From assembly GCA_973895155.1 (NCBI GenBank), contig OZ316896.1, positions 868,001-932,000 on the forward strand: 64,000 bases of DNA, read 5' to 3'. Source of the stretch: Marsupella aquatica (taxonomy: Eukaryota > Plantae > Marchantiophyta). The position numbers and the translations under genes were made by a program. Shown here piece by piece: positions 17,996 to 62,989 of this stretch (position 1 is the first letter of the stretch; the number at the start of each line of letters is the position of its first letter). The notes under the pieces are model-generated. The model saw nothing but the letters and a program-made list of their open reading frames with translations, was not told the DNA's origin and ran no database searches.

Positions 17996-18653
17996 AGAAA
18001 AGAGTATGATAAGCCACTAATAATTCCCATGGCTAAAGATAGGTGAGCACCAAGACAAGAACATGATCTCATCATATCTGGGTAGGTCCCATGACATGCA
18101 CTACGGATATATACCCCCTGTCACCTATACAGGGATAAAGTTAAAATTAAAATCCAGAATAACCAGGATATAATCATCCGGCCACCAGAGCCATTGATTT
18201 ATTCCCAATACATTTGGGCCACACAAAACAACCAGATGCTAGAGCCCATGACCTAAAAAGCAAGCCAAGATAGCGGCGCTACCAAGTCCAACCATCCAGC
18301 CACAGAGCTTACATTTCTCTGAAAACACTCGATAGGTGAAGAAGCACACACCCTGTGGGAAGCATAGGCTGACATGCATGGCAGAGTAAGAGGACACACT
18401 GCACTGGCAAGGAGATCGTGGGACTAGCAGCGCAGCCCAAGGATCAAGGACTGCTGAAGCAACACAGTGATACACAACTTGTCGTGGCTCAATGGGCATC
18501 CCACCAAATCAGGTGCTAGCTCACACTTTTTTACAGCAGATGTTGCTCCTTCTTTTCTATATCATTCACGACGTATTGGTATGCATGAATGTGATGTTGG
18601 AGTTAATAATAAAAAGGAACATAACAAGGCTTGGGAGACTCGACTTTTTCCGG

Positions 18654-18860
18654 CCTATGTCTCCCCGCAGCCGTCTAGACATCGCTGTAGAAACATGGGA
18701 CTAGAAATTGTGCCTACTAAAGCACAATCTCGATCCAATGGCGGGGGCTGAATGAAGACATTGGAATTGTGAATGGAAACAGTCCGTCCATTCCCGGTAA
18801 AAGAATATGGTCCATGCTCAATGTTGTGGACACAACGTTTGAGTACCACTGTCACCAAGC
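18654..18860 (+). ncRNA. Intronic structured RNA motif, copy 1
   Basis: cctatGTC-TCCCCG-hairpin-GAAACatggg-hairpin(attgtgc/gcacaat)-tccaatg-gCGGGGG-CTGAATGAAGA-cattgga-hairpin(gaatgga/tccattc). Confidence 0.7.
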
Positions 18861-19845
18861 AGTGCTCAGCATCGAAAGATACTCAGCTTTATAGATCTAG
18901 TTATCTTGAAAATGGACAGTTTATAAATAAGAGTAGTTATACAGAATAAGCAAGTCTTACTTCCATGGTTAACAGACGTTCGCAGTACCGAAACCTGTAT
19001 GTGTGAATGTATGTGTGAATGTATATTTCGATACTCCGCATATGATTGAATGTTGATGATCGATACTCTGCATATGATTGAATGTTGAATCAAGGAATGG
19101 CTAATAGAGAACAATAGGACCTGCGTTAATGCAGGATGTAATATATCTATGGATATCTGATATAATATCTCTCTCTGGTCTAAGTATGGACTGGTCGGTA
19201 GTAAAATAATGGTAGAAAACTCACATGGCTCTAGTGTTCCTAAACAAGAAACGGTACCCAATATTATGTATTAAAAGCAACTCTTTATACATAGGATGTA
19301 CTACATAATATTTCCATATACTATACACCAAGAATACTTTATTGCATGCGTTGCTATACCCTGCCACCTCACTACATGAGCAGCCACCACTATGACGGCT
19401 ACCCTAAAAAAACAAACGTACCATTATGTGAGTTTCCCTCCAATGAGATCAAATGATATTTTTTTCCCAGACCTACCTTTCTCGTCTTCATTGAGGGGAC
19501 TGTTTAAGAGACTCTCACCCGCTCTGGCTCTTGGTCATATCTTGCCACTGTCCTCAGTCTGTCACATTATTCTTCCAACCCTCTATTGCACCATTTGTGA
19601 GAGCTTCTATATTTCACTTGCTATGGCAGGACCACAGGACTGTAGTAGTCAGAATCAGCACACAAAGTCTCTACAAAAGGAGGCACCAATCATTTTTCTT
19701 TGAACAACTACATCAACAATTGTTGCACACACCAACATGGCATGAGTTGCACAGGTACGTGCCCTCACCCGTGGAGCTTATAGCTTAACTTTACATTTTA
19801 TTGCTTTATCATAGTCAGAATCAGTGCTAGTCCAGGGATAAAATA

Positions 19846-20043
19846 ATGCACGTCTCCCCTTTGCCGCCGCGGCTATTGGCAGCAGAAATGTATAATTGGA
19901 ATCATTGACATGTACATGATTCACCTCAAGGATGGGGGCTGAAAGACAACCTTGAAGCGGTAGTATGGTCCAAGCTCAACCATACTTTTACTCTGGCTGA
20001 CGATCTACTTTAGGCTGTTTGACTCACAGTGTTGATGCACCGC
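19846..20043 (+). ncRNA. Intronic structured RNA motif, copy 2
   Basis: acGTC-TCCCC-hairpin-GAAAtgt-hairpin(gaatcat/atgattc)-tcaagg-aTGGGGG-CTGAAAGACAA-ccttga-hairpin(agtatggt/accatact). The mini-exon ATGGCATGAGTTGCACAG|GT lies at 19737-19754. Confidence 0.7.
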
Positions 20044-20233
20044 ATTGAGACTACATTTAATCTACTTAAATATATTATGTGAAACGTTACCTAGATTAAG
20101 GTTGCATGTTGTACTAACAGCACCTGATGCTCTGCTGTGATAAGGACTCCACATGACCATTTAGAGCCTATGCGAATACATAACCTTTTAGAGATAAAGA
20201 CGAATAAAACATGGAGCTTCAATTTCTTGCTAT

Positions 20234-20288
<55 letters not shown>

Positions 20289-20592
20289 GCTTGCAAGCTA
20301 ACGTGTGGATCGAGAAACTCCAGAAAAAACACTTTATGTTCTAACACCAACAACCAGTTACTCTATTTTTGACATCTGTACTACTAGATGTGTCATAAAT
20401 CCACTTTAGACAAATAGTATCGTGACCCCACTAGACCAGATAATGTTCTACGTATCTTTTGTGATCTCATATGATTCTGCATTTGGATCTAAATATAAAT
20501 GACAATGGTGTATGTCTGCGTATATTCCAATCACACCTTTACACTGTTGAGCTTAGGACTAGTCTAGATCAAAAGTTAGTCCTGCCTTGATG

Positions 20593-20608
20593 TGGCCTTG
20601 ATTGGGTG
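20593..20608 (+). promoter_or_regulatory. Conserved unit-end motif TGGCCTTGATTGGGTG (also 21271, 31321; variants 43569, 45682, 61733)
   Basis: Three exact and three near-exact copies, preceded by TGA-N2-3 and usually followed 20-35 nt later by a TCTCTC run. Function unknown. Confidence 0.6.
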
Positions 20609-20782
20609 TTTTCATCTACACTTATCTCTCTCTAACCAATACCACTCCATTGATTGGTTTTGGTGGACCACCATCAATGTTAGAACTAACTAGATATATG
20701 GACGGATGCCTGCTTACAAAAAGGATGGTTACGGGAACTTCAAACGCTTGGATATGACAATGACCTTCCGCGATCATGTAAC

Positions 20783-21250
20783 ATGGCAATCCAAGTTACA
20801 TTGGCGTCCATTCGGCAACCTGAAATCCATGCAGCCATTCAAACTCATGATCGCGTCGTGATACAACGCGGTCTGGATGAAGAACAAGGTCAGTTACTAT
20901 TGCACAGCCTTGGGATCAATGAATGGTTCACAGTTTACCTTGCTGCTAGATATTCCGGCACTGAAGCTACTCTCAAGAAGCTTGACAACCTTATCAACAC
21001 ATTAGATACTTTTGAGAGCATCGATGAGGACGAGTTAGACCAGGCACGATGCCTTGGTTGCAAGTTAGCTAATATGCTTGCCTACTTACCTGCTCACACC
21101 GGAGCAAGTAGTTATACTGACACGCCGGCTACATCGGACATTGCTCATAAACTTCGTGAGAATCCGCTCATCAACACCGAATGGCTTTCACCTGAGGAAC
21201 ATACCGCCTTTTGGACTATTGATGTGCAATCCAGACTTGTGTGTATATAG
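20783..21250 (+). CDS. Hypothetical 155-aa protein between two TGGCCTTGATTGGGTG motifs
   Basis: An uninterrupted ATG ORF of protein-like composition in otherwise decayed DNA. The stop lies 20 nt before the motif at 21271. No family recognised. Confidence 0.5.
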   Translation: MAIQVTLASIRQPEIHAAIQTHDRVVIQRGLDEEQGQLLLHSLGINEWFTVYLAARYSGTEATLKKLDNLINTLDTFESIDEDELDQARCLGCKLANMLAYLPAHTGASSYTDTPATSDIAHKLRENPLINTEWLSPEEHTAFWTIDVQSRLVCI

Positions 21251-21849
21251 ATGTTTACCAATGCTGACTTTGGCCTTGATTGGGTGAAAATATGAAGTAC
21301 ATGGATATAATGCAAAACAAGTTAATAGTGATAGTCTAATATGAAGGATCTACTCTACACACTTCTATGTGGCCCACGTTACATATTAAGTAAACAAGAG
21401 GAAAAAATAACATACTAAAGACAGTCACCAAGATAAACTGTCATGTATGTCTTTAAACATTTAAGATGATAAATTATTACAAGACAATGTTGGCAATAAA
21501 AATTAAGTTTTATAATTTGCAACCCTAGCTTGGCAATATTGTTGATTTTTGAAGTGTCTCATTTTAATTCTGCATTTTGCAAACAACCTCATTCAAAATA
21601 AAACAAAACTCAAGTTAAGAAGTGCAATTGACATACTACTTTTGCAATGATATTTGTAATCAATGTCATTAATATTATTCTTATAAAAAATACTATTAGT
21701 ATGAGTTAATTTACTTAACTTATATGCTTGGTTATATGACATGGTGGTAAGTATGGTGGAGTCACTTGGGTGAAGGTGCAATTTATTTTTAAGATAAGAA
21801 AAATTAAATTTATCATGCTACAAGCTGCGGTTCTGAAAACCATTTTTTT

Positions 21850-29600: not shown

Positions 29601-30551
29601 AAAGAAATTGGAGTTATTGTGATGTTGAACAAATGATAATTTGTATGGCATGTGTATAAAAGATATATGTATGTAACAATGACATACCAGGGAAGATTTT
29701 GGAAGCAATTATGTTATGGATGGAATTCATGACTATGTATATGTAATGGGTTATCGATAGGAACCAGCCTGTGAACAGGGATGATAATGCTATAAAGTAA
29801 CACTTGGACCTAATTGTATGTTAGGATGTGATATCTATTGTGATATATATTATTTGATCTCTCTCTCTCTAGATACATCTCAAAGTGACCCAATGTAAGG
29901 AATAAATATAAAATAAGCAGTATATAGAACAAACCATATACACACCAAGATAACACACTAAAGTACTATGTACATAATAAACAAACATAAGTAACACCAT
30001 ACGCATATAATCTGGTTTCAAAACTAGTATCAACCATATAGCATAATATGAACCGTCGGATCCAAAATTCACTAAAAAATGGTGACCCACCTAAACCTAA
30101 GTGGCGGCTACCCTAAAAATGAACTCTTCATAGATTTTCATACATATATTCTTCTCACAACACAAACATACGCACTACTCAACAATTTCATATTGTTGAC
30201 ATGCTTGGAACCACGAGCAAATGTTGCGCATCTCTCTAGGCATCTATCTCTCTCTCACATTGTACTCTCTGCAACTATGCACACCATGACACTTTATTCT
30301 CTGCACTTTAGGTCTGCACATAGTACTTACTATATGCTCTGGCACTCTTTCACCGCACTATTTTACAGGCACATTCTCTCCTCACTGCTACGTTTTGCAC
30401 CTGGTTTTTTTCCCGTTACACTCTACACCTGGGGTGAGCAACAACATAACTCAAATTCATATGGCCAAATCCCAATAGGTATGACATCTTACATTATCCG
30501 TTGTATACACAAAGAAATTTGTCAGAATTTTTTGTGCTAGCCTGAAATTAC

Positions 30552-30752
30552 TATGTGTCTCTCCGTTGCTGCCGTGATTCAAAGTAGCATAAATACATAA
30601 CCTGACTTCTTCATTTTAGAAAGAGTCCCCTTAAAGACGGGGGCTGAATGATGACCTTAAGGGTGTAATACAGGCTATCATCTGTATTATAAGTCCAGTT
30701 AATGGTCTTTGACATGACATTTTGACACAATGACATGTCTAGACTGCACACC
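30552..30752 (+). ncRNA. Intronic structured RNA motif, copy 3
   Basis: tatgtGTC-TCTCCGT-hairpin(tgctgc/gtagca)-TAAAtacata-hairpin-cccttaaag-ACGGGGG-CTGAATGATGA-ccttaaggg-hairpin(aatacag/ctgtatt). The mini-exon ATGGCCAAATCCCAATAG|GT lies at 30461-30478. Confidence 0.72.
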
Positions 30753-33700
30753 ATTAGAATGATTCTCACTTAATCATTTATATATATATATATCAGTTTT
30801 ATCACCTTGTTATATAAAATTGCTCGATATCTATGTGCTAATACTACTAATATTTTGTTTTTTGTGTGTGCTTGGTTACTCTATTACAAAGAGATAGATA
30901 AAGCAAGTTTGAGACTTATTTCAATCGTTAATCTATAGATAGATGTTACTATGCTGTGACATTTGACACTTAAGATCTGTTGAGAACTTCTTGATATTTT
31001 TTGACATTTTTTGCACCAATCATAACTTGACAATAGAATCTTGAGGTATAGTTTAATCCGATCCAATTTTTGAGCCATGCAATGTTCTGACCCTATATGT
31101 ACAGGTTACTATCACTTTTCTACTTTCTCCTCTACTCACACTCATCCCAATATTGTGCACAAATTGTACATCGTGATTGCCAGCTTCTAAATGATTCTCG
31201 AATAATGTGATGATATCTTTTTGTACGAGTGACTGAGGTGGATATCCTTCTAAAGATCTTTCCATGACTTCTTAAGTATGACTTTATGGATATGTGGCTT
31301 GATATTATGAGATATTGACTTGGCCTTGATTGGGTGTTAAAATATTGACATTACATCTCTCTCTCTTGATACAAGATGACCCATTCAAATAGATTAAAAA
31401 GACTATATATAATAGTTCTAGTTAGAATGACAACACTTTTTCCTCCGCAACACTGTATGACCCTTAAAATACCTATGAAGGATACTAAATACAGTACCAC
31501 ATATGACCATTACGCATAAAAATGATATATACATATGTATACTCACCTAATACAAAGATCTTCTAAAATAATACATCTCTATCATTCATTCAGATCCAGC
31601 CTAGATCTAACGGTTACCGTACTCAAATCTGGACCCCACACAAAATCTAGAAAAAAAATTCCCGTATGATAGATTCCCCCACCAACACTCTTTTTGCTTT
31701 ATAAAAACACACTCAACATCTATTCTGACACACAATTCCTCCTGAACATTCCTTTTTGTATGATGCCTTCTTTCTCTGCGTGAACACACCATCGGGCAGC
31801 TCCATGCATATAGATCTACTACGAGGGTGACTGATTGGCTCAAGCTCTTTTTGTCTTTTCTCACTGTCACTCTGAAGTTTTTTAGCATCCCTATAGCATT
31901 GTTTTTTTAGCACGTTCCAGTTCACAATTCACGTAAGGCTCCTATGTACAACTATGGTGTTGTCATGAGGTTTCCATCCTAAAAGAGGAATCCTCATGTT
32001 TTGTGAAGGAAGTTGAAACCATTTTCTGCTTCTAACTTGGGCAAGTTGACTTGACTTGAGCTAACATGACCATGATGAAGGAGGAAGTAGACTTATGAGG
32101 GTCAAGGTAGGGATGAGGTCAAGCCTACCCACCCTTGTTACTATTGTGAGATATGTTTTTCATTTGTGACCAGTGGTTAAGTTGTCATTTGGCAGATTGG
32201 CAAAATGGAGGTTGCTTGCTCGACAAGCAAGGTATTTAGGGTTTTGGCAATATGGTGACCAGGTTCATTGAATATGGGGAGGAGGTGACCAAGTTCAAGG
32301 CATGTAGGAGGGTTTGGTCCAAGTGCATTAGTTTTGTAAGATATGGGCCGGATTCAGATTTTTGTGTTAAATAGACTAGATTCAATGTATCTAGTTCAAC
32401 GGTGGATCTTGGTTTTGGTTAATTGATGGTTTGGATTGAAGGTGGAGATGCAAGTTAGGGCTTGGTGGAGGTCATGGCTTTTTCAAAAAGATCAAAGCTC
32501 TTTTGGTTTGGAAGTTACTAAGGAGGGGTTTTTTGGCTCATTTCTAGCCGTTTGATCTAATTGGTGTGAGGTTAGGGATGTAATTCAACAAAGACTAAAA
32601 CCATAAGTGGAGGAGCTTGTGGGTGCCCTGAGCCTTCCCACGTGGGTACTAAAGGAGGAAGTTCAAGTGGCCAAGGGTTCAAAAGTTAGATGCTGCTAAA
32701 GTGTTGTGATTTTGCCATTTTGGAGTGTTAAGTCCCATTTCGAGTTGTAGGAACGAACCTCTAGAGGGGAGCTCAAGGATGAGGGATGTGTAAGGGAGGA
32801 GCCCTCCTCCTTGGCCGTGGCCTTAGTTTCTTGAGGGTAGGAGATGTAGAACTCATTTTTAGAAGGAGAAGAGAGAGGTGACAATTTGAATGTTGCTACA
32901 TTTCACTTGTGACAGTTTTTTCTAGGGATTTTGAGGGAGGTTTCGAATGTAGGAGAGACTGATTCAAAGCCTTAGGAAGGAGGTAGACCATGAGTAGGAA
33001 GCTTAAGGAGCATGCATGAGAGATTGTCCACAAGAAGGCATACTCGAATGTAATCTCTTGGCTCCAAGTTTTGAAAGGTTTGAAGTAGTAGGGCTGATTC
33101 AAAGTCTTAGTGATGATATGTAACAAAATTTTCCTGAGCTTGTGTGTGTTGCATGAGAGAGGGCTCATTAAGATGGCCTACTCAAGTGCAAACACCATGG
33201 CTTGGGGGTTTTGAAGGAGGATGATAGGTGTAAGGGAGTAGGAAGGGAGACAAAGCTATTTTGAAGCCTTGAGATGACTATGGTGGTAGTTTGGAGGCTA
33301 GGTAATGTCTTACTTGGTGTTTGAGCTTGTTTGGTTCATCTTTGCTAGGAGGGTCTTGCTTGTGACCCATATTTTAACTTATGAAAGGCCATGATGCTTT
33401 CCATGTGCCGTTTGCCATGCATTTAGAGAAGTAGACTTCTTGGTTTTTGAAAGATGGTGTAGGAGGATTGTTTTGGCTATGAATGAAGGATGAATGGATC
33501 ATTTGTGAAAGCTATGTGATATAATGGGTATTTTTGATAATGTTTGAAGTCTCGGGGGCCTCAGTATACAGAGGCCCTCATACCACGCTCAACGTTTTGG
33601 TCCCCTGCGACCCTAACTTATTAAGTAAAAAAATAAATTCCCCTCCCTATCATACTTAGAAGAATTCCAAATCCTTAAATTTTGACCCCTAAAAAAGGTT

Positions 33701-34149
33701 AAGTTTTGCCATCATTAAAACATACCTTACTAAGAAAAGAAAATTTCTTTCAATGCGCACCTTTTTTGAGTGTTTGTCAAGATTATTTGAGTCTTTGTGA
33801 AGCTCATTCAAGCCCTACTATGCTCCTTTGACATCCATATCTTATCATAAAAAACTTATAGTATATAGTGCAGATGCTTCCACTAAGAATCTCAATTCTA
33901 GTAGAAGCTTCAGCAATATACAGTATGAGTTGTTCATATTTGCAATCTCCTATGCTTGTCTCATGTGAACGGTAGGTGCACCAAAAGAAAATTGAGTAAA
34001 AAATCTGAATGAGTGTATGTGGCAGAGGGGAATTGAACCCCTGATTGAGCAAGAAGCCCAAATATCCAAATCTGCCACCCCTTAGCCTATCCCTTGTACC
34101 TACTTAAACCACTACCATAAGTTTTGGTACATGCACATCATTCAACTCT

Positions 34150-37100
34150 AGACATGGTCTCTAGATAAGTATCCAAAGCTTGTTTGTCAACTCAATCTAA
34201 CACATACACTAAGCCAATCCCTTGTTTCATGCTTAGAGTAACATTAGTCATCACCATTTCTATATCAATCCATTGTAAATCAGTCGTATCATAAGTGAAT
34301 TCAACCTTGCTTGAGCTTGTTGGCTTATACCAATTAAATAAGAACTGACAAATACTCCCTATGTGTCCATGAGGAGGTGTTGGCCTGTCAAGCAAATCAA
34401 TAGCAGATCTCACTCTAGTCCATTGTCCCTTAACTTTCTATCTCATCATCATAATATGACCAAGCCAAAATTCTTTCTTGGCTTGCACTTCTGGTTCTTG
34501 AGTCCTAGCTTTACCTCTTCCTTTACCTTTCCCTTTCTTTGATCTTGTAGAAGGGCCTGCAACATTAGCACTTTCAAATGCTACTCCACAATCACTTCCA
34601 ACATCAACAAAACAGGTAACAGTATTTGGATCACATTGTTTCCTCTTACCAAGATTATAGTATGCCACTTGCTTCACCCTTGTGAGCCTATCCTTAGACA
34701 AATGCGGGTTGCCCACTAGTTGACTCACCAAAGTAGATTTGTAAATTGTTCTGCCCTCATAGGTAACTGTAGGCAAAACCTTCCTCTTTTCCTGTAGAGG
34801 GCTCTGAGTAGACTCTGTAAGGTCAGCCACAATAGAAGACAACACATGACGAATCTCATGCCCTAAAGTATCTACCTCTACAGAATGAGATTCTGGTATG
34901 TCTAACTCGGCCCCATCCTGCAAAACATCATCAGGAATGGTTACATCATCTGTCAACCATGCATCAATTTGATTTAGATCTTCCTCAGGGTCTTCAAATT
35001 CATGAAACTCTCCTTCTGGTCGAGGTCCAATTAGAGATCTGTGCTCTACATGGTCTTCAGAATCGTCAACAACAATTGTTTATGCTATGATAGCTGAATC
35101 TGGCCATGTTTCAACTTCCACATGCCAAGGGTGAGTCCACCACCACTTTCTTGATGCTGGCAGATCACTTCGGGGAGACATTTGCAACATTCTAAGCAAC
35201 TCTTTTGCTTCTTCAAATCCTTCTTTCAAGGTTGCAACCACCAACTCATTAGTTTGTACTTCAGAGTAATCAAAAAGATTAGGTGCATCTTCACCTTCAA
35301 GTAAAGGATGAAGCTTGGCCCACACATGATCTTGCTTTTTATGTGATCGAGCTACTTTCAAGCCCTCTGGTCCACATTCTAATCCAGCAAGACGATTCAA
35401 CCCAACAGCACTATCCAACAAAGAACCAAAATCATAATTTCTCTCATGGCCACTCATTCCACCTACCTTACTGAAAAAGATCTCACAACAATCAGAACCC
35501 AACTCATGAAATGGAATACACAAGTGAGAAAACTTGTCACGAAATGCACATACAAGCAACACAATGAATTGGCAAGACATATTAACATCATGAAAAGCTT
35601 GGATTGAAATCATATTTTTCTCTGTATGTAAAGCAACATTTCCACCTACAGCATGATCACCATACCTCAACCACAACCTCCACAATCGAAAGAACCAAGA
35701 AACTTTTCCTGCCAGCTTCACTCTAGTCCTTAGATCATGTCTCTGGGAGTAGAAAATGTCAATGTAATCTGCACAAATCTGCAGATACAACTCTATCCCC
35801 AAACTTTGTTCATACAACAGATCAGTTCTTAGATGCAAATCTGCTAAACATGCACGCACCTTTTCTGATGCTATCCTCTGGGGACCAGCCCAATTCTGAC
35901 GGTCAGATCTATTCACATCATCCCAATTCAATCCATGTTGATGAATTGGATAACTATTGTACACATTACAAACGTGAAACAGAGAAGCATGTTGGTCTCC
36001 AAGTGCCATTATTGAGGACACTCGATCTAGTGGGTTTATCAACTTTTTCCCATTGTGAGGCTGGTCTTGATCACCAAAACCATAGAGATCCCCATTAGGC
36101 AATATGGCAACTGAGTAAGGCCATCCTTCCCACCTACAGAAAATCTAGGGTAAGAACCATTTTCTCCTCTGTAATCTTCTAACATCAATTTCCTGCGTCT
36201 TGCATCACCATCACTAGCATGCCCAAGCAAAGGACCTACAGAGTCTCTGCAATGCACATCCCAAGATTCCTTCAATTGCATCCAATGCTCTCGTACCCAT
36301 TCTGCCTTGAATTTGTTACAGGTTGATATAGCACAGAGGGCCAACTTTGGCATTCCAACATGCAATGGATTCACAATGACAACTCTAGCATACATCCCCT
36401 TGTTAAAATCCTCAAATGTATTTACAATCTTGTTATAGCCATCCTCATCGTCACCTACAAGAATTTCTAATCCAAATTCATAGGTGTGCTCATCCTTATG
36501 ACCACAAAAACCAATCAGAGTGTCATATTTGGCCTCCCACCTGCAGAGAGCCCAATGTCAATGAGATCAGTTCCAAAGAGTTGATAAAACTACATGTCTA
36601 ACAAATAGTCTTCAACTCCAATTGCATCAATATGTGTTGTAATAAACATACATTGGGCTTTCCTTGATCCTGGTTTCATCCTCTGCAAGCATGATAGGAA
36701 CATCCCCCTGAATTTGTAACATCTCCTTTGCAACAGACAAAATCCAAGCCACCTCCTTGAATGTTTTTGGCCTAATTCCAGCACAAAATTAAATAAATTT
36801 TGCTCTATCTCATTTTAGTGTCTTCAAGCTTGGCCCAGCTAAGTTCCTTGCAAAAACATGGGCCACCTGCCGGCCCCCATATTGAAACATAGCCTAAGCT
36901 ATGGCTTTTGTTTTCTGACTGTAACAAAACCCCCTTGCATTTCTCTCCCAATTTTTACCTACATCCTTCAAGAAATCCCATAGACCTTCTTTTCCACCAA
37001 ATGCACCATTCCTATGACCATTGACAATACTCCTTAGAAAAAGTCTCAAATCTTTTCTGTCTGCAGCTACTCCTAACAGTTCCTGCAATTTTCTCTTCCT

Positions 37101-38400
37101 AGTACTAAGGGCACACACTTTCTGAGTCTGTAGTGCCAACAACCATCTCTCCTTTCTTCTCTTGACATTCAGACCATGCATCTGTTTGGTCAACTCTGGA
37201 CGTGTCAAATAACGTGCATTCAAACCACCCTCTATGCTTCTTTCCCCTCTCTTTGCTAAAGCTTCCGCTTCCCTGTGCACCTGCCCACGAAAGTCATCTT
37301 CTAATGTTATAACATGACATCTACTACAAGTTAGGTTCAAAAACTCCCCACCATACAAGGACAGCCTAGAGCAATCTCTATGCCTAAATAGTCCTTTTAT
37401 ATGTACAATAGAACTTGTGTTAGGATTGTAGACATCAACAGAGACTGTAGCATCTAAATCCCATACATGTCCACCACACTGATCATGCAAGATACCCTTC
37501 ACAGCATACTTCACATTCTTCCACTCTACATATTCATCCCATATTCCCCAACAAAGCAAACTCAAGCCCACATCAATGTCTATAGACCCACCTGTACCAG
37601 AGCTGCTGCTTGCATTGGAAGCATCCTCCTTGAAGACTTTTAAAATTGAATTATGTGAAGGATGTTGATCCCTCTCATCTGGCTTCCTTGGTCTGCCCCT
37701 CTTTCTAGATCTCAATGCAAGTTCAGCAGTATTCTTTCTGGCTTCAACTACATCCAAGTGATCCCGACTAACCAAATGTGTCCTTAGGTTGTGGTCCAAA
37801 GTCCCTTTCTTACAAACCAAATTCATGATTGCCCCACAGACTTTACAACAAACCTTATAAAGGAACCACTTGTTTGCATTATTGGCTACACCAGGCACAG
37901 GGGGCACATGAAATAGCTCATCATCACCTCCACACTCAGTATTCAGAGTCTGGACTATCTCTAGGCCAGTTGCTATGGCCCCCTCATAATCAAACTCAGG
38001 CTTCTGTGCAAGATCAGAGGGCTTGACCCCAGTCATAGCAATGCCCCTTCTCCTGCAGTAATTGTCTTTGTGTTTAGCAAAGGCAAGGTGCTTGGTCTTA
38101 AAATTGCTGAATAGATTAGCAATTGACTTCTTATCTTGGGAATTGTCTGCCCTCCCATAGATCACTCTGCACTCAAGACACTCTAGATGGTCTCTCACAT
38201 CTTGTCCTTCATCCCATGTTCAAATTCTCCAATTATGATTTTTATACCCATTTTTGTGAATCCACTTCTCTAGTCTTATAAATTCATCATTCCAGACTTT
38301 GACAGTTGCTTTAGACATGAGAATAGACTCAAAAGAAGCTCTCACAGGGGGAGCATCTTGAAGTTGTTCACAATGACAGTCACATAAAGAACCTCCCATA
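34150..38400 (-). pseudogene. P-superfamily-like transposase, frameshifted
   Basis: Fragments 38400-36894, 36395-36039, 36102-35080, 34956-34438 and 34413-34192 are colinear with 51419-55916. Motifs GHASDGDARRRKLM, DQDQPHNGKKLINPL and GSDCCEIFFSKVGG. Confidence 0.88.
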
Positions 38401-38589
38401 TAGACTGAACCTGCCATATAGCACAAAGAACAAAACAATAGAAGAGTATTAGAGATTACTCCAAAATAGTTCAAACAAGCTTTTGATGTCCAGATTAGGA
38501 CACCAACAAAAACAAAATTATCACTGTTCACATGTGATTACTCAGCTATATAAGGCCTTTACCAAAGCAATTCTAACAATATTCTGATA

Positions 38590-42200: not shown

Positions 42201-42454
42201 CTTTGTTGACCAAACCAAGGCAACCATGAGCAAAGTCTAAAGTATGTTAATGTTTAGGATGTTGAAAGCTATGAAGGTTTGTTGTCACCATTGGTTATTT
42301 TCTCATGCACCCGGTGTGTCTTTGACGAGGTCCTTGAGCCTCTTTTTCCACCTCTTTGCTTATCCTGAGGGCGTGCTCAACATTCTTTTCATCTGGTCCC
42401 CTTTTTTCTTGCTACTGTGTATCTCATGAATGACATAGGCTAGCCCCTAACTAA

Positions 42455-42670
42455 TACATGTCTCCCCGTTACCGCCTGGGTAATTTGGTAACATAAACAT
42501 ATAGCGTGAATTAGTCATCTATTTGGCTTGATTCACCCCATGGACGGGGGCTGAATGACGACCCTGGGGCATGCAATGTAGTCATGTCAACTACATGTCA
42601 ATTATGGTTGATGGTCTACTTCAGTCTGTGAGACACCCGATGAGACATACAAATATGATGCACCGATAGT
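42455..42670 (+). ncRNA. Intronic structured RNA motif, copy 4
   Basis: tacatGTC-TCCCCG-hairpin(ttacc/ggtaa)-caTAAACatata-hairpin(gtgaat/attcac)-ccccatgg-ACGGGGG-CTGAATGACGA-ccctgggg-hairpin(atgtag/ctacat)-tggttgatggtctactt...gatgcaccg. Confidence 0.75.
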
Positions 42671-42711
42671 CTATGCAAGTAGCTTTGCTAAGAGCTAGGT
42701 GCTGGCTCTAA

Positions 42712-43032
42712 GGGGTATTTACAAACGATAGGAAACAGCAAACAGTAACAGGAACCAGAAACTGGTAACAGGAAAATGAGTGGTAATTTTTTTTGAATTT
42801 TTTTGAAATTTTTTTTGAAATTTTTTTTTTGCCAAAAATATTTTTTTGCTAGCGCCTGGCGCTGGTAATGCTAGTGCCCAAAGCTAGCCAAAAAATTGTT
42901 GTCGACAATTTTTTTGTTTGAAAAATGTGACTTTTTAGGAAATATTTTTACATTGTTATTTTTCTGGTAACAGTAAATTTTTGTTGGTATCAGTAAATCT
43001 ATTTCCTATTTACTGTCACGCATGTCATACCC
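42712..43032. mobile_element. ~320-bp MULE-like MITE
   Basis: Direct repeat ggctctaa (42704-42711, 43033-43040). The ends are gggtat / ataccc with diverged inverted subterminal repeats. Confidence 0.7.
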
Positions 43033-44267
43033 GGCTCTAATAACTTCTCTATTTTATACTAACTTTACTAATTTTGTTCTTCATGTTTTAACACTACAAT
43101 AAGATACCAATATGCTCTTGTCGACACCACCATATTAGACTTATCTCTAGTTTTTTTTCTGACCTGATAGAATTACTTTTCTTGCTATACCCTGGTTGCT
43201 AAGATCTATCTACCCAATACATTGAAAATAGCTTTTTTCTGATATGTATCAATTTGACGCTACTTTTGTCACATGTATTACTCTATATCTTCACTAGTAG
43301 ACCCTGCTATTACTCTATACCTGATTTATCTTGATACATATCCTTTTCGTGAATTGATCCAATCATTATATGTAATTGACTTTTTTGATATCCACAATCG
43401 CGTAAGATCTTTTCATATTATTTCTTTGGCTTTACCATGTGTCACCGGCAATGTATGAAGTTCTTGTCTTGGACTACAAGGTGAAATGCATATTTACCTA
43501 AGACTATTCCCAGACCCTATTGTAGGACCATGACATGCGTTATGTGTGGACAAAGTAGCATCTTGAAGTGGTCTTGACTGGGTGTCTTATTTGCTACTTT
43601 ATAAATATTTCTCTCTTTGGATAGGAGATATACTCAAGATAATTGTTTTCTAGATATTTGTAAACTTTTAGTAAAGTGTTAATCTATTCACAAAGTAAAA
43701 CACCATGTATAATGATTGACCATATAAAGAAATATATATACAACAAATGTCTATGTATCTACAACTCCACTTGCACCCTAATATTAAATTACCATCATCC
43801 ATCGACCCTTTTCTACAACCTAGATCTAATGGTCCCTATCATTCACATACACTTTCATAATAAATAGCCTAAAAAAGTACCTCTAGCTACGGTTGCTTCT
43901 TGTGATGCCTTTCACATTACCCCAACATTATAAACAGCAACGGTATCTTCACTTTGGATCTGACGAGGAACCTTGACGGCTCTTCCTTTCATAAACATTC
44001 TCTCTGTCTTGTAATTTATGGTCTTGATCCCATAGAGCATTTACATGCAAATGTTACTGTTCTTGGTCCCTTCTGCATATCCACGCTCTCTCTGGCATGT
44101 TGTCCTATACATCTTGTGACTGCTTTTTACACACTTGTTCTAAACCAACACTCTGGCTACTTCAACAATATTCTCGTGGCTCACATGGCATGAGCACAAC
44201 AGGTGACTATTTTTGAATTTTCTTTACCCCATATATTGCTCCATTTGTTAGGCTAGCCCCCAGCTAA

Positions 44268-45125
44268 GACACGTCTCCCCATTACCACCCGGGAAAATGG
44301 TAACATAAATGTGTCACACATTGAACACCTTTTCTTTAGCTGTGGAAAAGTTGTCAACAGGTGGAAAGAGATCCAACAGCTACTGCACAGCTCCCTTGCT
44401 TTACAGTTTAACCACATATCACTCTTTGATGCTATTAACCATACCATACTAAAACACAAATGGAAACCAGGACCATTGTTGATTCTTATGGAACTCTGCC
44501 ATGACATCTGGAATGAACGGAATAATGCCAATTATTCTCAATTTTTGGGAAGACTTCCTGGATGGGTTGTGCTATGCAACATTGAACTGCACTTGAATTC
44601 CATGGTGACCACTTGCCACACTCAAAAGAAAGGAAAACAACTCCGAGAAGCTATTGAGCAACTTTAGGTTGTGCTTAAGCCATGGGCGCAGATTGATAGT
44701 CCGGTTCCTTTTAGTAATGATGACGATCTAGGAGCAAGCTCAATTGGAGTCATTGTAGTCAGGACAGTCCCAAGGAATGACAAAGGACGTGGTCCTTCTG
44801 GATTCTTTAGTTTGGCCTTTGGGGCTGTTTGTTTGGTTGCCTCTCCCACCCTAGTGGTCTTTGCCCCGGGGTTGGGTTTGTTGGGGTTCTCCCCTTTCCC
44901 CCTTCCCTCGCTTTTGGGGGTGTGGTTTTTTTGGAAAAAAGGAAAAAAAGGACAGAATTTATGCGTTACATAAAACTAGTACATTTGTTGACTAGCTTTG
45001 CCCCATGGACGAGGGCTAAATGACGACCATGTGGGTAGCAATATAGCTCTTATGTCTGCTATATTTTAGGTATGGTTGATGGTCCACTTCTAACTGGATG
45101 AATACCAGAATGAAGCACCGCTAGT
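44268..45125 (+). ncRNA. Intronic structured RNA motif, copy 5, split by an L1 fragment
   Basis: 5' half gacacGTC-TCCCCA-hairpin(ttacca/tggtaa)-caTAAAtgtgtc (44268-44315). 3' half from ~44970: aaactagt/actagcttt-cccatgg-ACGAGGG-CTAAATGACGA-ccatgtggg. The mini-exon ATGGCATGAGCACAACAG|GT lies at 44185-44202. Confidence 0.7.
44320..44960 (+). mobile_element. 5'-truncated L1-type LINE
   Basis: IEHLFFSC...W...IWNERNN (zf-RVT C-terminus). A-rich tail at 44935-44949. Degenerate TSD atgtgtcaca / atgcgttaca. Confidence 0.8.
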
Positions 45126-48100
45126 TTGACATATTGTTCTACCATGAGCAGAACGCATGTTGTAAAATAGTTTCTTTTAATAACTAATTAAGGACTAACT
45201 ACGTGGATGATTGTGATGTTGATAATACTATTGATGCAACGTTTGTGCTAACTCTGTCATTCCTTAGCAATAACTTGTATCCATCATATTCTCCTAAGCT
45301 TGATAAGGCTACATTTTGTTTGACATATTCACGGTGTATCTTTACATAGGTCAAAACTTGTCATCAGTTTCTCTAAACGTTGAATTTTATATACATGCGA
45401 ACCTAGAAGTTTTTTACTTTCCCTATTTTTTACTTTCCCTATTATCATTTTTCTTGTCTTGATTATCACCTACACCAGCGTCACTCCTTTTTAAGTCTGA
45501 ATTATCCAATAAAATACCGTATCATGATTGATCTTTTTTCCGGGCTCCACCATGTGCCATAGCTATTGTGAAGCTTTCCGTGCAAGATTGATTTGGTGAA
45601 TGACATATGAAAAGATTATCCCTAGACCCTACTATATGACTTGGTCATGTGTGTTGTATGGACACAATGGTATCTTGACAATGGCCTTGATTGGATTTTT
45701 GTCCTTATGTGATATCTCTCATAAGAATATGGGGAGGATACACAAGAAATGGAAGGCCAGGCTTGCAACAACCAATAATCTTTGTGTTAAGACCTAGCCA
45801 AACATAATCTATACAATTGCGCTAGTATGAGACCTTCAACTAGAGACCCACAACCACAACATATATACAGGCCATACATAGACCTCAGTCCAAGTATACC
45901 ACACATGGGATACAATATGATCACTAACATACAAAACAAAGATATATGTAAGATCAAAAACATCACCACCGTTGATTGATACTAGGGATCCACAAAAGGA
46001 GAAGTAATCAATGTTAATTCCACAAGCGAGTCCACAAAAGACACGTCCTCAAGTGGAGGAAGTCCATCTCTATACCCATCAAAATTCGACGATACTTGTC
46101 AATGATTTCTTGTAATTGAGGAGTCAATTGTCTTTCTTCCCACTGGCCATTCAAGTTGAGACCCAACCCTGTCCTGATCATAGCCTTCCTTGCATAGTTG
46201 ATCCCAGCTTTTTGTCGATCTGGTTGTTCACGTCTCTCACACTAGCTGCAGCTAACTCCAAAAAATATTTCTTCCCAGGGTTCTTTAACATCCCATAGTG
46301 CCCGTCAGGCCAGATCCTTGCCACTATGCATCTCGAAGCATCTCCAATTTTTTTGGTTCCCATCTCCTGGTCCAAGCGTCCTTAATTTTGCTAATGACAA
46401 ATGAATCACATGGCTGGACCAAGTGAGTAGCTGCTTCTGGAAATCTATGGATTTTTGTCTTCACTCTTTCCATAGCAGCCTCACATTGTGAGTAATTTTA
46501 TGCCGCGGGCAGTTGTCAATCCATTGTATCTTTGTGTGGCCAGAAAGAGCAGCCCAAGTTACTCGAGGCTCACTATAATACTCACTCAACAAATCTGATG
46601 TCATGAAGCTCTTTTTGCTAGTGCGGTAACAAACTTCAGACACTCTATCTGGCACCCCACGAATAGGGTAGGAGCAATTGTCATTTTGAAAAATAAAAAA
46701 TGGAGTTGCAATTTTTCTAGCCACCCCACCCGTAGTTTTCACCACCATAGTGATGCCGACTCCCTGGGCCCTTAGCTTAACTAATTTAGGGACCCTCGTG
46801 CGAACAGCTCAAGGGGTTTTTTAATCCCATTTTCAACTAATTGTTATAATTGTTATAACCTAAGAAGCCCCTATTTAATAATGCTTTTGATTATAATCAA
46901 TGTAGGGGTTATTAAAAAAATATCTCAAGTCGCATTTTGCAAGGGTATGTAATATGGGCTTGCCACACATCACCACCGGATTGGTACACGTGTCTAGACA
47001 TTGCAGAGTGGACATGGTTTAATATGTGCCCAAATACGTGCCTATAATAAGCACACTTTTGGAGAATTTATTAGATGGCTGAGATTTCTTTTATGGGTAT
47101 TGAGCGCTCTAGATTGAGGGAGTGTTTGAAGTAATGCTGGGGAGTGTTTGAACATGATGTTGGGGAGCTGGCGCCTTCTTGGAAGACTGATGCTGGCACC
47201 ACTTTGAAGGGACAAAGAAGAGCATTCTTGGAAGGAAGGAAGACCGCGCTGCTTAGGAAGGTAGGGGATGGTCCTCGTATTTACTGCTCTATGTGACTGT
47301 CAATAATTTTCTTTGTCAGGCTCTATCGTCAATAGTGGATTCACAAGAGACTTCCTTTGGTAGATTGTTCTGTCTTGGATCTTTTCTTGGAGCTATCTTG
47401 GATCTTTCTTGCATTGATTATTTTTCATCCTTCTTGATCAACTGCTCTTGTGCCTGATGATTTGCGTTGGCTGCTCTCAAAATGCGAGTAGGAATTGTCA
47501 GTATTCTAAATTTTGGTGATTGATTTTCATGCCTGGATTGTAGTCTGAGGGGTCTATGTTCTATCTTGATTTTATGTACTCGTCCAAACTTCTACCAGGA
47601 TTATGATGCCGCCATTTATATAAAACGCATTAGACGAAGAGCTTGACTCAATTGTGGCAACTGTGACACCAATCAATGGAGTTCGTGGTTGTGTGCACAG
47701 ATGTTCATGCAGATTGTCGTCTCCGGTGTTCGCTCAAATATCTTTCATAAAACCTGCAAGGTCCGGGACTCGAATCAATGCAGTGAATGGTAGACAGTCA
47801 CTGGGAAAGGGCCACGCTCCGGCTTGAGGTTCTGAGTCTGATAGGGCGCCATTATGATTTCAATTGGTGGATCGATCTGGAAGCCATCCGTAGATTTCCA
47901 TTTCGATTGATGTGATAGGCTTGGCTCCATGTGTTTGCAAATATATAATGTGAAGGACATGATTTGGGTTGCTGACATGTTGGCTTGTCGTGTATCTAGA
48001 AGGGAAGTGTATGGCCATTGACTTCGGAGCTACCGGATGGGAATGACCTTCAAGATGAGCACGGATCTGGCATGACAGCTTCTCGGATGTGTTAATATTG

Positions 48101-58084: not shown

Positions 58085-58225
58085 AGTTTGAATCTATCCA
58101 ATGTTTGACTAGATTCACCCAATGGACGAAGGTTGAAAGACAATTCTAAGGTTCAGTGTGACAATTGTCATTCATATTTTAATTTTTTGGTGAAGGTTTA
58201 TTTTTATCTGTGTGACAAATGAATG
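58085..58225 (+). ncRNA. Structured RNA motif, copy 6 (3' half only, decayed)
   Basis: hairpin(gaatcta/tagattc)-cccaatgg-ACGAAGG-TTGAAAGACAA-ttctaagg...tggtgaaggtttattt. Confidence 0.5.
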
Positions 58226-60765
58226 TGATATACTACTCTCAACATATTTCTTCATATGAAAAAGCTAATTAGGTTATCTATAGACTATAAAAATTTATAT
58301 TTATAATCACTATTATTAATCAAACATCCATAATCATATTTTAATTTTCATTAATGATTTAGAATTATATGATGTATTTATGTATGTAGACTCATTGTCT
58401 AGGAATACTATAATTCATAAACCAACTCAGTTATTTACGCTTGAATAGTTTGTGGAGAATTTAAACAAGTTTGAGTTCAAAATAGACAATTTAACATCTA
58501 TGATAATTTTTTTCATTGCATAGAATGTAGTAGAATCAGTTTTGTATGTAATCATCAAATACAATTGGTACTAAGGTGGTGGGTGAGCCTAAAGATAGTA
58601 ACAAAAATTATTCTCTTACTTTATCAGATGATGATGATGATATATAATATAAGCTTATACTCTAAACATATTGTTCAATAGTTTCTTTCTATTTAGAAGT
58701 TTTTTAAATATTCATTATTTTATTTTGCGATAATTTTTTTAGGAGAGAATTTTTATCACAATGAGAGAAATCAAATGCCTTAACAAGGCAAAAGCAAAGT
58801 ATGAGAGAAGTAGATTTGGGATCATTACAAGAATCTTGCATTGTATAAAGCGACATTAATAATAATAAGAATAATGAGATTTTTATTATAGATAAACAAA
58901 TATTGTCAAATATAATCTCAAATACAATTCAAGAACAAGAGGCTACACTACCAATAGCTTTCAAGAGGTTTAAGAAATCAACTTCTATCAATGTCTCGTC
59001 TGGTGAACAACGAGAATCAATTTTCTTCCCAAATTCAACAACAAAGGTGAGATTGTCTTGGTTTATGTTGTTAAATTAATGATATATCCAAAATAATACT
59101 ATATATATTTGTACTAACAATTTTGTGTGTAACAATTTAAAAAAAAGATGTTGTAGGATTACAAAACATTGTGGATCGCTCTATAAAAATAAAATGAGAT
59201 GATTATCAAAATATGATACATTTCATTATGTCATAATTGAAAATAATTAGGTGCAGACAGTGTATTGTGGTGATGTAACATTGTCAATGTCTAACAAAAA
59301 TAAGAAATAATTATGCTTACAAGATTGTTAAAGATGAATACATTATGAAATGCTGGTTATTTTGTAAGTGTTAAATATTTTTTTAATCATGTAAAATAAA
59401 TAATTTTTTAATGTAGATTATCATTATCTACTCATGCAAGTGAAGAATGTGTATTTTTTGTTTTTTCATCATAATTTTTTTTGTTTTTTTAATCATTCTA
59501 TGTTAAAGTTTGTAAATTTTAGAGTTTGAATTTTTGAATATCATGATGAATAATGGATAAAGTGATGTCTCTATTGTTGTGTTCTGATTTCAATGGATTC
59601 ATTGTATGTCATTTTTAATACGACTATATTGAACAAAGGCAAAGTAAATTTTCTATGAACCATAAAACTTAAGATAGTCCAAATAATATTACTTAAAATA
59701 TACCACATAATATTGTTTAATGATACAATATATGACATCATGTATGATATTTTATATGATACATTGTATGATATCTTAAATGACTATTAATGTTGTCCAA
59801 GTGATTAATTTATAATTAACCACATGTCACATTTTTATTGATAAAAATAAATTGCGTAATTTATGACATGTTAATTATGAAAAGAAAAAAAAGTTATATT
59901 TTTGATGTCATGTCAAATGTCATTTATGATATACTATATCATTTATAATATGTGGAGGCTCTTGCCATCTAGTGTGCATCTGTCATGTGTGAAGTCACGC
60001 GCGGATGTTCGAGATTGTTATGAAATATAGTAATTTCATGAAGCTCCATGGTGCATTTCAACGACTCAGTTGCGACAGTGTGTTTCCGGCGCCTTATTAA
60101 ATCGGGCGTTGGTCGAAGCTCCGGTCATCCAGTGTCCAGGTGAAAAAAAGACACACGCGCGGACTCCCCATTGACATGGAACATGACAGTTTCATTCAGC
60201 ATCAAGTTGCATTCCCCGAGCACATGTCCGACATTGCTTTACAAATCCACAATCTTTTTTTGTTGATCCTTCAATTTGAAAGCAAACATTCAATTGCATT
60301 CTTGAATTTATTTTATTTGATCATAGACAACTCGCATGTAGTCTGACATCCTACTGCCCATCGACGGCGAACTGGCCACCTGATCGTAGTGAATGTTTTG
60401 CGTGGTATGTTCAAATATTTTCTCACACAAACGTCCGTAATGACTATATCATGCATGCTTGCATAATTGTCATATTTTGTAAAATAATTTGTTTAAATAT
60501 GTATCATAAAAAATATCATTAAAAATATGGACAAATGACTTATGACTGTTCATTTAGTGATTTTGAACATCATGTCATTTCTAAAATGTTATATTATTTA
60601 GGACTATTATAAATAATGGAGTTTAAATCATTTATTTTAATTTAAATAATTAAGTTCTCTAAAAAATGAGGTAGGTATGACGAAAAAACTCTAGTCAAAT
60701 ATTGATAAAAATAATTTTTTTTGTCTTCATTCTAGTCCTTAAAGACACTATATTCCACTAGTTCA

Positions 60766-60798
60766 ATCTAGTGACGGGGCTAATCAAGGACACTAGAT
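60766..60798 (+). ncRNA. Structured RNA motif, possible copy 7 (core hairpin only)
   Basis: atctagtg-ACGGGG-CTAATCAAGGA-cactagat: a perfect 8-bp stem around a related loop. The upstream partner was not found. Confidence 0.35.
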
Positions 60799-62448
60799 AT
60801 CTAAATAGATATTGTCCATTCATTCTTAGAAAAAAAATATGGCCAATGCTCAATATCATATATATAATATTTGAATAATATTATCACCAAAAAGTGTCAA
60901 ATATTAAAAGATAATCAATAGGACAAATGTCAATCAATTTGTTTTGAAAATAAATTCAATATATCTTTGGAGGATTTTTATATAACAATAAGATAAATAA
61001 CAATAAGCATATAATATATATATACATATATATATAATTTTTTAAAAAATATTAAGAATAATTTTAAAAATAAATAAATATACTCACACAATTATATAAT
61101 ATATATATATATAATAATTATACATACATTATATATAATTATCCATAGAAAATATTTGAAAATATCATAAGAAAATAAAATTTAAAATTATAATATTTCT
61201 TTATAATTTCTTATTTTATTAAATGATATTATTAATAATTAAATAAAAATAAAATAAATTGTTTGACTTGTTCAAATAAATAATTTATAATATAATATTA
61301 TTAGATATATAATAAGTCAAAGTCATAGAATATTTCAAAATAAAATAGTAAATTAAATAAGCTTAATAAACCAAAATAGTAGAATATGACAAAATAAAAT
61401 AATGTGCCAAAATAGTGGGCTAAAAAATTATGTGTAACTCACTTTCTAAAATAATGGACTAATAAATTATGGATAATTCATTTTATAAAATAATAAATTA
61501 AAAAATAGGCAAAATAATAGGCTAGCAAATTATAGGTAATCCATTTTAACATGTTGATAAAAACCTGACTAGGAACAAGGGCCAATGATGTCAATATCAA
61601 TATCTTTGGCTGTTTAAATGACGTTTTGACTTGACATGACATGGTGTATGTCTTAAAAAAGACTCCCCTTGCAATAGCTATTGTTGTGAAATGCAGACTC
61701 ATGTGTGATTCAATGTTTATCATATTTGACCTTGGCATTGATTGGATGAAAGTTTTGTGTAAAAACAAACTTTAAAGAAAAATACCCCCATAAAGTGTAT
61801 ATATACCTCGTACTCCATTTCTTATATACATACATAAAAAATACCTTTTGTATAAAAGTACCAAGTATATCGGGCGTACAAGCTAGGCTTAAAGTAGTAG
61901 GTTTAACTGACACTTTTAGCGTCTATCCTTAAAAAAGGCAACATAATAAAACTTTATAAATGTACTCATTCAAATAGTCTCATAGTACCAACTAATGTTC
62001 TTTCCTTCCTAGACATACGCTCAGAGTCCTATGTTTTCTCTCCCTCTTTTCAACTAATGTTCTCTCTCCCCTGCATATGCATGACATTCATAGATTCATG
62101 TGCTTGTCTTGCTTGTGACTTTACTACATGTGAACATTTATCCTCTTTGACAAAACCAATGATGATTTGTGTGTTTTTCTGAGTTCTTTAAATCTTTCAA
62201 AAACCTGATGTTGGATTGTATGTCTATATTATGAGTTCTTTAGAATCCTCCAAAGACCTGACGTTACCAGTCCCATAAGCTTTATAATTGTCAGAATTTG
62301 CTTAAATTATCTCCTTTAAATTACTATTCATGCACAAGGTTTGGTGTCCACACACAACTCCACCTTACACAAAAACATGGCAAGGGGACAACAGGTTTGC
62401 CTCAATAGTCAATATTTTGCTGTAATTTCTTTGCTAGCCCTAAGTTAA

Positions 62449-62567
62449 TATGTGTCTCCCCGTTCTTGCCGCGGCTGCAAGTAGCAAAAATACATAACAA
62501 AAATCTAATTTTTTATAAAGATTTGATTCATCCCAGGGATGGAGGTTGAATGACAATCCTGAGGATG
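62449..62567 (+). ncRNA. Intronic structured RNA motif, copy 8
   Basis: tatgtGTC-TCCCCG-hairpin(cttgc/gcaag)-AAAAtacata-hairpin(aaatct/agattt)-catcccaggg-ATGGAGG-TTGAATGACAA-tcctgaggatg. The mini-exon ATGGCAAGGGGACAACAG|GT lies at 62377-62394. Confidence 0.7.
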
Positions 62568-62989
62568 TGATTGCAGACCAAGCTTTGGAATTGGCATAGA
62601 CCATTTCTTTGTTGCACTTCCAATTCTACATCCAAAGGAGGATGTACTAGTCAGATAGTCTGGTTAGATCATGTCTTGGTACATGGCTAATCACCGAGAG
62701 CTATTCTTTAATGTTTTTTTTTGCACAAGGACGTATGGTCCTTACGATGAGCTTTCTTGGTGGTGAGGCACGTCACGTACGGACAAGACCATACGGACTA
62801 GACCCACCCAACCTTGGATTCTAGAAATCCCGGCCGCTGCCTTACATCCACAAGGCACAACATAACACAAATACCTTTCATGTATTTTGATTACAACAAT
62901 TAGAACCTAAAAGATGAAATAAAATCTTTAGGTTAGGAAATCAATCCCGAAAACAACACACCCTTCCAACCAACACCATATCTAGGCAA

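Follow-up and report, generated by a model that had tools for sequence, protein, structure and literature searches.

A tandem array of probable PLE-X-derived units with a conserved, hammerhead-like RNA in the liverwort Marsupella aquatica

Background

A stretch of 64,000 nucleotides from the liverwort Marsupella aquatica (GenBank assembly GCA_973895155.1, contig OZ316896.1, positions 868,001 to 932,000 of the forward strand; the whole stretch is referred to as the window) contains a succession of similarly organized units on one strand. This raises the question of whether the units represent a system of gene cassettes, as proposed in an initial annotation of the sequence, a cluster of host genes or the debris of a mobile element. 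The explanation favoured on balance is that 11 remnants derive from an endonuclease-less (EN-less) element of the PLE-X type, which belongs to the Chlamys group of Penelope-like elements (PLEs), each retaining a leader and an ATG mini-exon next to a splice-donor sequence, together with an RNA of approximately 185 nt that would be of hammerhead descent, with its blocks in S-G-C order, and that is predicted to be part of the first intron. The pieces are colinear with the 5' half of a PLE-X element, i.e. leader, mini-exon, intron with the RNA, acceptor and protein.

The PLE-X elements, known from Chara and Selaginella, were described as the third type of Chlamys PLEs, and these EN-less elements bear an N-terminal extension with the motif CxCX1-8C (Craig et al. 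2021, PMC8557442). According to the same study, Chlamys elements prefer microsatellites, such as (CT)n in the case of Chlamys-5_cBra, whereas the PLE-X elements of Selaginella target the 28S rDNA. The integration of PLE-X elements without an endonuclease and the role of the ribozymes in PLEs are left open by that study.

Organization of the array

The 11 remnants are all located on the plus strand and keep their parts in a fixed order. They can be divided into four complete units containing every part (U19, U30, U31/42 and U44), the two near-complete units U62 and U18, which lack the usual end and start, respectively, and five fragments (the piece at 21216-21289 together with its protein remnant, U29, U58, U60 and U61). 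The unit length from the start motif to the TC tract is 1.2-1.5 kb with insertions subtracted. The recurring head-to-tail scaffold recognized in the initial annotation is borne out by the following features:

18492..18512, +, U18 ATG mini-exon of 21 nt, phase 0, then GT
18636..18821, +, U18 structured RNA; all hammerhead-like blocks including G12; many dispersed relatives
19081..19177, +, U18-type 3' end with TC tract, common to 29771-29889
19397..19754, +, U19 start motif and leader, then mini-exon of 18 nt with internal stop (19737-19754)
19826..20014, +, U19 structured RNA; S-G-C blocks including G12
20593..20632, +, U19 end motif and TC tract
20690..21250, +, likely PLE-X-type CxCX1-8C protein (motif comparison by eye), remnant of the N-terminal third; putative decayed acceptor at 20714-20716
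21216..21289, +, 3' end piece including the end motif (76% like 61678-61751)
29771..29889, +, U29, U18-type 3' end alone, with TC tract
30106..31365, +, U30, complete; start 30106, mini-exon 30461-30478, RNA 30533-30716, end motif 31321, TC tract 31356
31458..31965, +, U31/42 5' part; start variant, leader and first 12 nt of the mini-exon
31966..42287, strand not assigned, nested transposon insertion within the U31/42 mini-exon
42288..43617, +, U31/42 3' part; remainder of the mini-exon, RNA 42436-42625, end motif 43569, TC tract 43610
43864..45720, +, U44, complete; mini-exon 44185-44202, RNA halves 44249-44323 and 44990-45093, end motif 45682
58107..58207, +, U58, 3' half of the RNA only
60755..60951, +, U60, 3' half of the RNA together with the sequence behind it, U18-like
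61678..61751, +, U61, solitary end piece containing the end motif (61733)
61921..62575, +, U62, variant of the start motif, leader, mini-exon 62377-62394 (open) and RNA 62430-62575 (ends after the 5' arm of the fourth hairpin)
62574..62787, +, likely PLE-X-type protein remnant, CxCX1-8C region, frameshifted, fused directly 3' of the U62 RNA

The start motif was confirmed as exact at 19397 and 30106 and as a variant at 31458, 43864 and 61921; the heptamer CCCTAAA, a conceivable telomeric primer, is exact in two of these five motifs and occurs ten times in the window. The ATG mini-exons followed by GT were likewise present as annotated, with 21 nt at 18492 and 18 nt at 19737, 30461, 44185 and 62377, and three of the six contain an in-frame stop codon. 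The split mini-exon is genuine as well, since 31954-31965 and 42288-42293 are separated by the nested insertion of approximately 10.3 kb, which is flanked by the 8-bp duplication TGTTGTCA. The 3' part of U31/42 contains an additional insertion of about 330 bp with an 8-bp duplication (42704/43033), and the RNA of U44 is divided by an insertion of about 660 bp (44323-44985) with a possible 5-bp duplication. The latter insertion, which revealed nothing significant in Pfam, presumably resembles the 3' end of a long interspersed nuclear element, going by a motif of such ends. A scan of the window for the 16-nt end motif TGGCCTTGATTGGGTG yielded six copies with at most two mismatches, all on the plus strand and none on the minus strand. 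TC tracts mark six unit ends, and the sequence following them differs.

Other proposed parts of the scaffold turned out to be less distinctive. The leaders are only mildly pyrimidine-rich (57-63% versus 51% in the window, with a 90th percentile of 58%), and the branch-point-like CTAAY and the TCTCTC words are present but occur so frequently on the plus strand (114 and 49 times, respectively) that neither is informative by itself.

The homology of the unit parts was assessed by pairwise comparisons with 100 shuffles per pair. For the RNA, eight of ten unit pairs exceeded all shuffles, with identities of 64-83%, and only in the RNA are the units alike (about 70%). None of 15 leader pairs and only one of 28 pairs of middles (U18 versus U60) reached this level. 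The non-coding scaffold is better conserved than the remainder, as suggested in the initial annotation, and the middles cannot be aligned. The variable coding exons assigned to these middles were not recovered: from the branch-like site up to the end motif, the longest stop-free plus-strand frame comprises 39-66 codons in U19, U30, U42 and U44, and middles without a long open frame do not represent diverse coding exons.

Protein remnants and the link to PLE-X elements

Only two coding remnants were found within the array (20690-21250 and 62574-62787). Both belong to the same protein family, are sense-oriented and colinear, and are located behind scaffold parts. The 186-aa frame at 20690-21250 matched 52 cluster representatives, one of which (P0022) is a repeat artefact; several of the 52 are of approximately 530 aa. 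Among 20 proteins looked up, nine of nine named matches were liverwort gene models from Calypogeia fissa and Riccia sorocarpa. The second piece, directly 3' of the U62 RNA, was detected by tblastn with an E-value of 5e-9, and it agrees with the family at 54% over 35 aa. The family is characterized by the motif W..RP[YF]LxCxC..C..WxDH, which includes CxCX(n)C, and the same motifs are present, by eye and without scores, in the proteins of PLE-X1/X2_cBra, sMoe and sTam. The window's own CxCX1-8C motif is decayed. By motif, the array protein likely corresponds to the CxCX1-8C N-terminal protein of the EN-less PLE-X type.

Moreover, the Riccia gene model P0007 unites the array protein family with a segment matching protein P0056 (E-value 1.4e-22), the motifs of which agree by eye with the reverse transcriptase of PLE-X1_sMoe as read from DNA. 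PLE-X1_sTam, also examined by eye, has at its 5' start an ATG exon of 27 nt and a GT intron, whose CAG acceptor precedes the conserved W by two codons. The place of this acceptor is occupied by Q in 6 of 15 homologues and by CAA in the window. Splice-donor sequences are present in six units, along with the putative decayed acceptor at 20714. As neither the CxC linker nor the reverse transcriptase adjoining the family in P0007 is present in the window, the units appear to be derivatives and not autonomous PLE-X elements.

No Pfam entry above the cut-off described the array protein family, P0056 or P0058; P0056 had no match among PDB sequences or in prokaryote genomes; and no longer fused form of P0029 was found, this being a weak test. 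The predicted fold of the array protein had a pLDDT of 45 in a single-sequence model and of 68 in an alignment model, and the latter had no match in BFVD or PDB (best VIA Z 5.3); the fold atlas was uninformative.

A conserved RNA with four covarying helices

The RNA of approximately 185 nt is kept across the units and contains four helices with strong covariation. Models built from the window copies, so that the training copies match by construction, identified six 5' halves and eight 3' halves, all on the plus strand, in agreement with the structured RNA noted initially; the window contains no further copy (best other E-values 0.48 and 2.9). In the six copies of the 5' half, 92% of the cells are paired and two-sided changes occur at 8 of 13 pairs, and the corresponding values for the eight copies of the 3' half are 80% and 13 of 18. 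The observed pairing was reached by none of 500 shuffles for each half and the slid controls remained at or below 49%, with the restriction that structures drawn from the same sequences are favoured in both kinds of control. RNAalifold recovered the same helices. All five tested copies could form a closing stem, with duplexes of -4 to -13 kcal/mol and no control for comparison, and the G-U pairs favour the plus strand. The position behind the splice-donor sequences predicts that the RNA lies in the first intron of the unit.

Rfam gave no match in the window at the gathering score (chance matches with E-values of 4.9 and 7.1 fell within 42300-45400), no tRNA was found, and no upstream element typical of RNA polymerase III genes was found. 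Hepatitis delta virus-like, hairpin, twister and pistol ribozymes, small nucleolar RNAs, microRNAs, thiamine pyrophosphate riboswitches and telomerase RNA were compared by eye only, with consensus features, and none of them fitted. A second pseudoknot (GAUUCA with UGAAU) was dropped, as RNAalifold puts the strand in a local hairpin despite 77.5% pairing. A motif scan of metagenomes gave three matches, none with the flanking helices, which were judged to be chance.

The conserved unpaired bases are found in two loops, C-UCCCC facing ANAA and GGGG-CUGAAUGA. When the RNA is read as a hammerhead, the first helix would be stem III, closing on an A-U pair before a GUC, the predicted cleavage triplet, and UCCCC together with the G run would form stem I, immediately followed by CUGA, which gives the S-G-C order. 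Stem III covaries in the 5' half, and stem I is 100% paired in four copies. A scan for hammerhead blocks with a relaxed descriptor, loosened after the sequences had been seen, detected the S-G-C order in four of five copies scanned: with G12 in U18 and U19 (matched in any order by 9 and 3 of 3000 shuffles, respectively), and only without G12 in U30 (67 of 3000) and U42 (13 of 3000). Three other places in the window match in other orders. Apart from one extra base in all copies, the CUGA..GA core is intact in four of eight, and the canonical type I core CUGAnGA..GAAA is absent from all RNA copies and present nine times elsewhere in the window. Taken together, the RNA is probably of hammerhead ancestry, and present ribozyme activity of any window copy is less likely than not.

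Copies elsewhere and growth of the array

Copies elsewhere were identified in contigs of four sequencing runs covering the stretch, none of which is on record as RNA. A T to C change at 18656, converting a stem III G-U pair to G-C, is carried by 12-22 contigs per run, and the summed depth of this variant is approximately 40-85 times that of long single-copy contigs, a depth that does not represent a copy number. A contig junction from 18765 to 29794 was present in four of four runs and one from 30656 to 31313 in three of four. Both junctions correspond to the RNA followed by the end motif, as in the array, judged on short sides of 33 and 21 letters. Since neighbouring units are too dissimilar for a recent tandem duplication and TC tracts are located at six unit ends, the array more likely grew by units landing repeatedly at such tracts.

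The history of the array might be envisaged as follows. Internal deletion would have given rise to non-autonomous units, which a PLE-X reverse transcriptase encoded elsewhere would copy in trans. Units of different old subfamilies would have landed successively at the TC tract ending the previous unit, selection would have maintained the RNA as a cis-acting signal, most likely for cutting the unspliced precursor RNA, and later transposons would have disrupted the units. A more far-reaching version is put forward tentatively, and we consider it rather unlikely to apply in full: a liverwort PLE-X element would carry an active split-core hammerhead in its first intron, with S-G-C order and two separate hairpins in place of stem II. 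Splicing would remove the RNA for the mRNA, unspliced RNA would be cut into the transposition template, and the EN-less enzyme would insert at the TC tracts of earlier units, thereby building arrays of unrelated subfamilies.

Points against a PLE-X origin and alternative explanations

Several observations weigh against the derivation of the units from a PLE-X element with a hammerhead-related RNA. No target-site duplication of a unit was shown, and no reverse transcriptase remnant was found in the window by tblastn with P0056 and P0007 158-343 (best E-values 1.8 and 0.48). An autonomous liverwort element was not encountered, so that the position of the RNA in such an element would follow from a single junction, that of U62. 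At the DNA level, the U62 protein remnant shows no detectable similarity to the sequence behind the RNA in seven other units (z at most 1.0); the idea that these units contain decayed protein sequence behind the RNA was rejected as not significant. In translation, the end motif gives GLDWV, similar to the beginning of PLE-X ORF2 (ranks 14-785 of 127,888), but its flank evolves without codon constraint, with changes distributed 9:7:5 over the codon positions and 14 of 15 changed codons non-synonymous. A coding ORF2 start is retained only as a weak lead, and the motif is better regarded as a cis signal.

With respect to the RNA, the construction of the structures from the compared sequences and the late loosening of the descriptor belong to the same group of objections, as do the unremarkable z-scores of single-sequence folding (-0.5 to -1.6 on the plus strand, -3.0 for the minus strand of U18) and the lack of any two-sided change in stem I. 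The relaxed scan gave no S-G-C match for U62. G12 is kept in two of six copies (GAAA in two of six) and lost in four, three times as T. The core reads CUGA-NN-GA, with one extra base in all copies and no exact CUGAnGA, and the stem II expected from the block rule is absent in four of five copies and comprises 2 bp in the fifth.

The foremost alternative is a cluster of host RNA genes struck twice by PLE-X elements: an old cluster, the product of which would be the intron-borne structured RNA, with the two PLE-X pieces as separate insertions, possibly targeted to the RNA in the manner of the Selaginella elements at 28S rDNA, a target specificity that is published (Craig et al. 2021, PMC8557442). 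Such a cluster would fit the preservation of the structure next to spacers that cannot be aligned, and also the presence of protein sequence in only 2 of 11 remnants, which in turn is a further difficulty for a PLE-X origin of all units; the U62 remnant begins mid-gene, as expected of a 5'-truncated insertion. We nevertheless regard this explanation as unlikely, given the resemblance of the phase-0 ATG mini-exon to that of PLE-X1_sTam, the many dispersed relatives, the loss of CpG (observed/expected ratios of 0.36-0.71 in the units versus 0.94 in the PsbO gene of the window), the stop codons in three of six mini-exons and the absence of an Rfam family, a tRNA and a typical RNA polymerase III upstream element.

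Derivation from a PLE-X element can also be combined with an RNA unrelated to hammerheads, which would act as a non-catalytic pseudoknotted signal for reverse transcriptase binding, priming or splicing control, in an array formed by old local duplication. The loss of G12 in four of six copies, three times to T, the missing block-rule stem II and the extra core base are in line with this proposal. It is rendered improbable by the cleavage triplet, the A-U pair, the AA and the CUGA, which stand in exact register with two helices and are rare in shuffles, and, as regards local duplication, by neighbours that are unalignable outside the RNA, whereas U18 has many close relatives elsewhere. A cassette system or a viral or giant-element gene battery, with diverse coding cargo and a common processing signal, would match the fixed scaffold order and the variable middles but is largely refuted and very improbable, because the middles lack a long frame, both real coding pieces represent one retroelement protein family, and scans of viral contigs with P0003, P0056 and P0045 (protein) and with the RNA motif were empty. 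What stands of the origin suggested in the initial annotation is the view of the units as mobile, either retrozyme-like or site-preferring, and not as ordinary paralogous genes.

Genomic neighbourhood of the array

The PsbO gene encoding the manganese-stabilizing protein is located at 2860-4124 on the plus strand and has one apparent intron (Pfam MSP, E-value 1e-99). It is followed by tandem repeats of 29, 61 and 80 bp at 5031-5385, which have a single 33-nt core in common, and by a broken reverse transcriptase/maturase of the group II intron type at 6366-7203 on the minus strand (RVT_1, E-value 3.5e-11), probably an organellar insertion. A high-copy family of approximately 297 bp with inverted ends, resembling miniature inverted-repeat transposable elements, occurs at 15260-15556, 22393-22688, 7356-7554, 41876-42042 and 1369-1460, with 96% identity between two copies. 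Transposon-like DUF7869 frames were detected at 25248-27475 on the plus strand (E-value 2.7e-31); behind them, at about 28.2-28.9 kb, a decayed stretch of copia-like RNase H was recognized by eye. Additionally, a large transposase-like gene of unclassified type (frame of 1074 aa, without a Pfam match) is present in two copies on opposite strands at 33551-42040 and 51398-55540, the former of which includes a PHD-finger frame at 38719-39279.

Comparison with known systems

The element type is already known. No report of non-autonomous PLE-X arrays in liverworts or of the array RNA was found in the literature searched, with most subscription papers outside its coverage. The array resembles PLE-X elements in the CxCX1-8C N-terminal protein, in the ATG mini-exon and predicted intron ahead of the protein (sTam, by eye) and in a probable association with microsatellites, and head-to-tail non-autonomous copies have been described for Chlamys elements (MRC1; PMC8557442). 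It differs in that the window lacks a reverse transcriptase and a CxC linker, the host is a liverwort, and the units of 1.2-1.5 kb are highly diverged. The array RNA is also unlike the type I hammerhead listed for PLE-X1_cBra, and it is located behind a splice donor and not in the 3' tail. The units would reveal which cis parts a non-autonomous derivative has long kept, i.e. the mini-exon, the intronic RNA, the 16-nt end motif and the TC junction.

The hammerheads of PLE-X1_sMoe and PLE-X1_sTam in File S2 of Craig et al. are marked as deviating and, in our own reading, overlap the intron and the coding start, so these Selaginella hammerheads may not be real. In PLE-X2_cBra, a CUGAUGA stretch that is unlisted in that file is located just 3' of the stop codon of the reverse transcriptase.

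Animal retrozymes without long terminal repeats (non-LTR retrozymes) resemble the array in being tandem, non-coding and PLE-linked, with a ribozyme-like motif per unit (Cervera and de la Pena 2020, PMC7229834; Li et al. 2026, bioRxiv 10.64898/2026.07.22.740005). According to the same sources, they consist of near-identical repeats of 150-450 bp with canonical type I hammerheads, whereas the array units in a plant host are 1.2-1.5 kb long, unalignable outside the RNA and keep the mini-exon and a predicted intron. A short near-identical array of this kind was not detected in the window by TRF with periods up to 500. Plant LTR retrozymes are likewise non-autonomous plant retroelements with a hammerhead (PMC7229834), but an LTR pair, a primer-binding site, a polypurine tract and a type III hammerhead were not seen in the window. 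If true, an active split-core hammerhead in the first intron would amount to a plant non-LTR retrozyme and to a new hammerhead wiring. The array also provides a short RNA in which a cut site is predicted.

The closest counterparts of the RNA are the non-circularly permuted type-SGC hammerheads, known from searches of metatranscriptomes and from microbial searches (Eckert et al. 2023, PMC10085705), which have the same order of S, G and C, a short conserved pseudoknot stem I and a covarying stem III. In contrast to these, the C and G blocks of the array RNA are not joined by stem II, each block being placed on its own covarying hairpin. The array RNA, a putative ribozyme, has the core CUGA-NN-GA, often without G12, and comprises approximately 185 nt within a possible closing stem. 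It is a genomic repeat, whereas the type-SGC examples are metatranscriptome RNAs (PMC10085705). An S-G-C hammerhead in the intron of a land-plant retroelement, with its core further rewired, would widen that class, if true.

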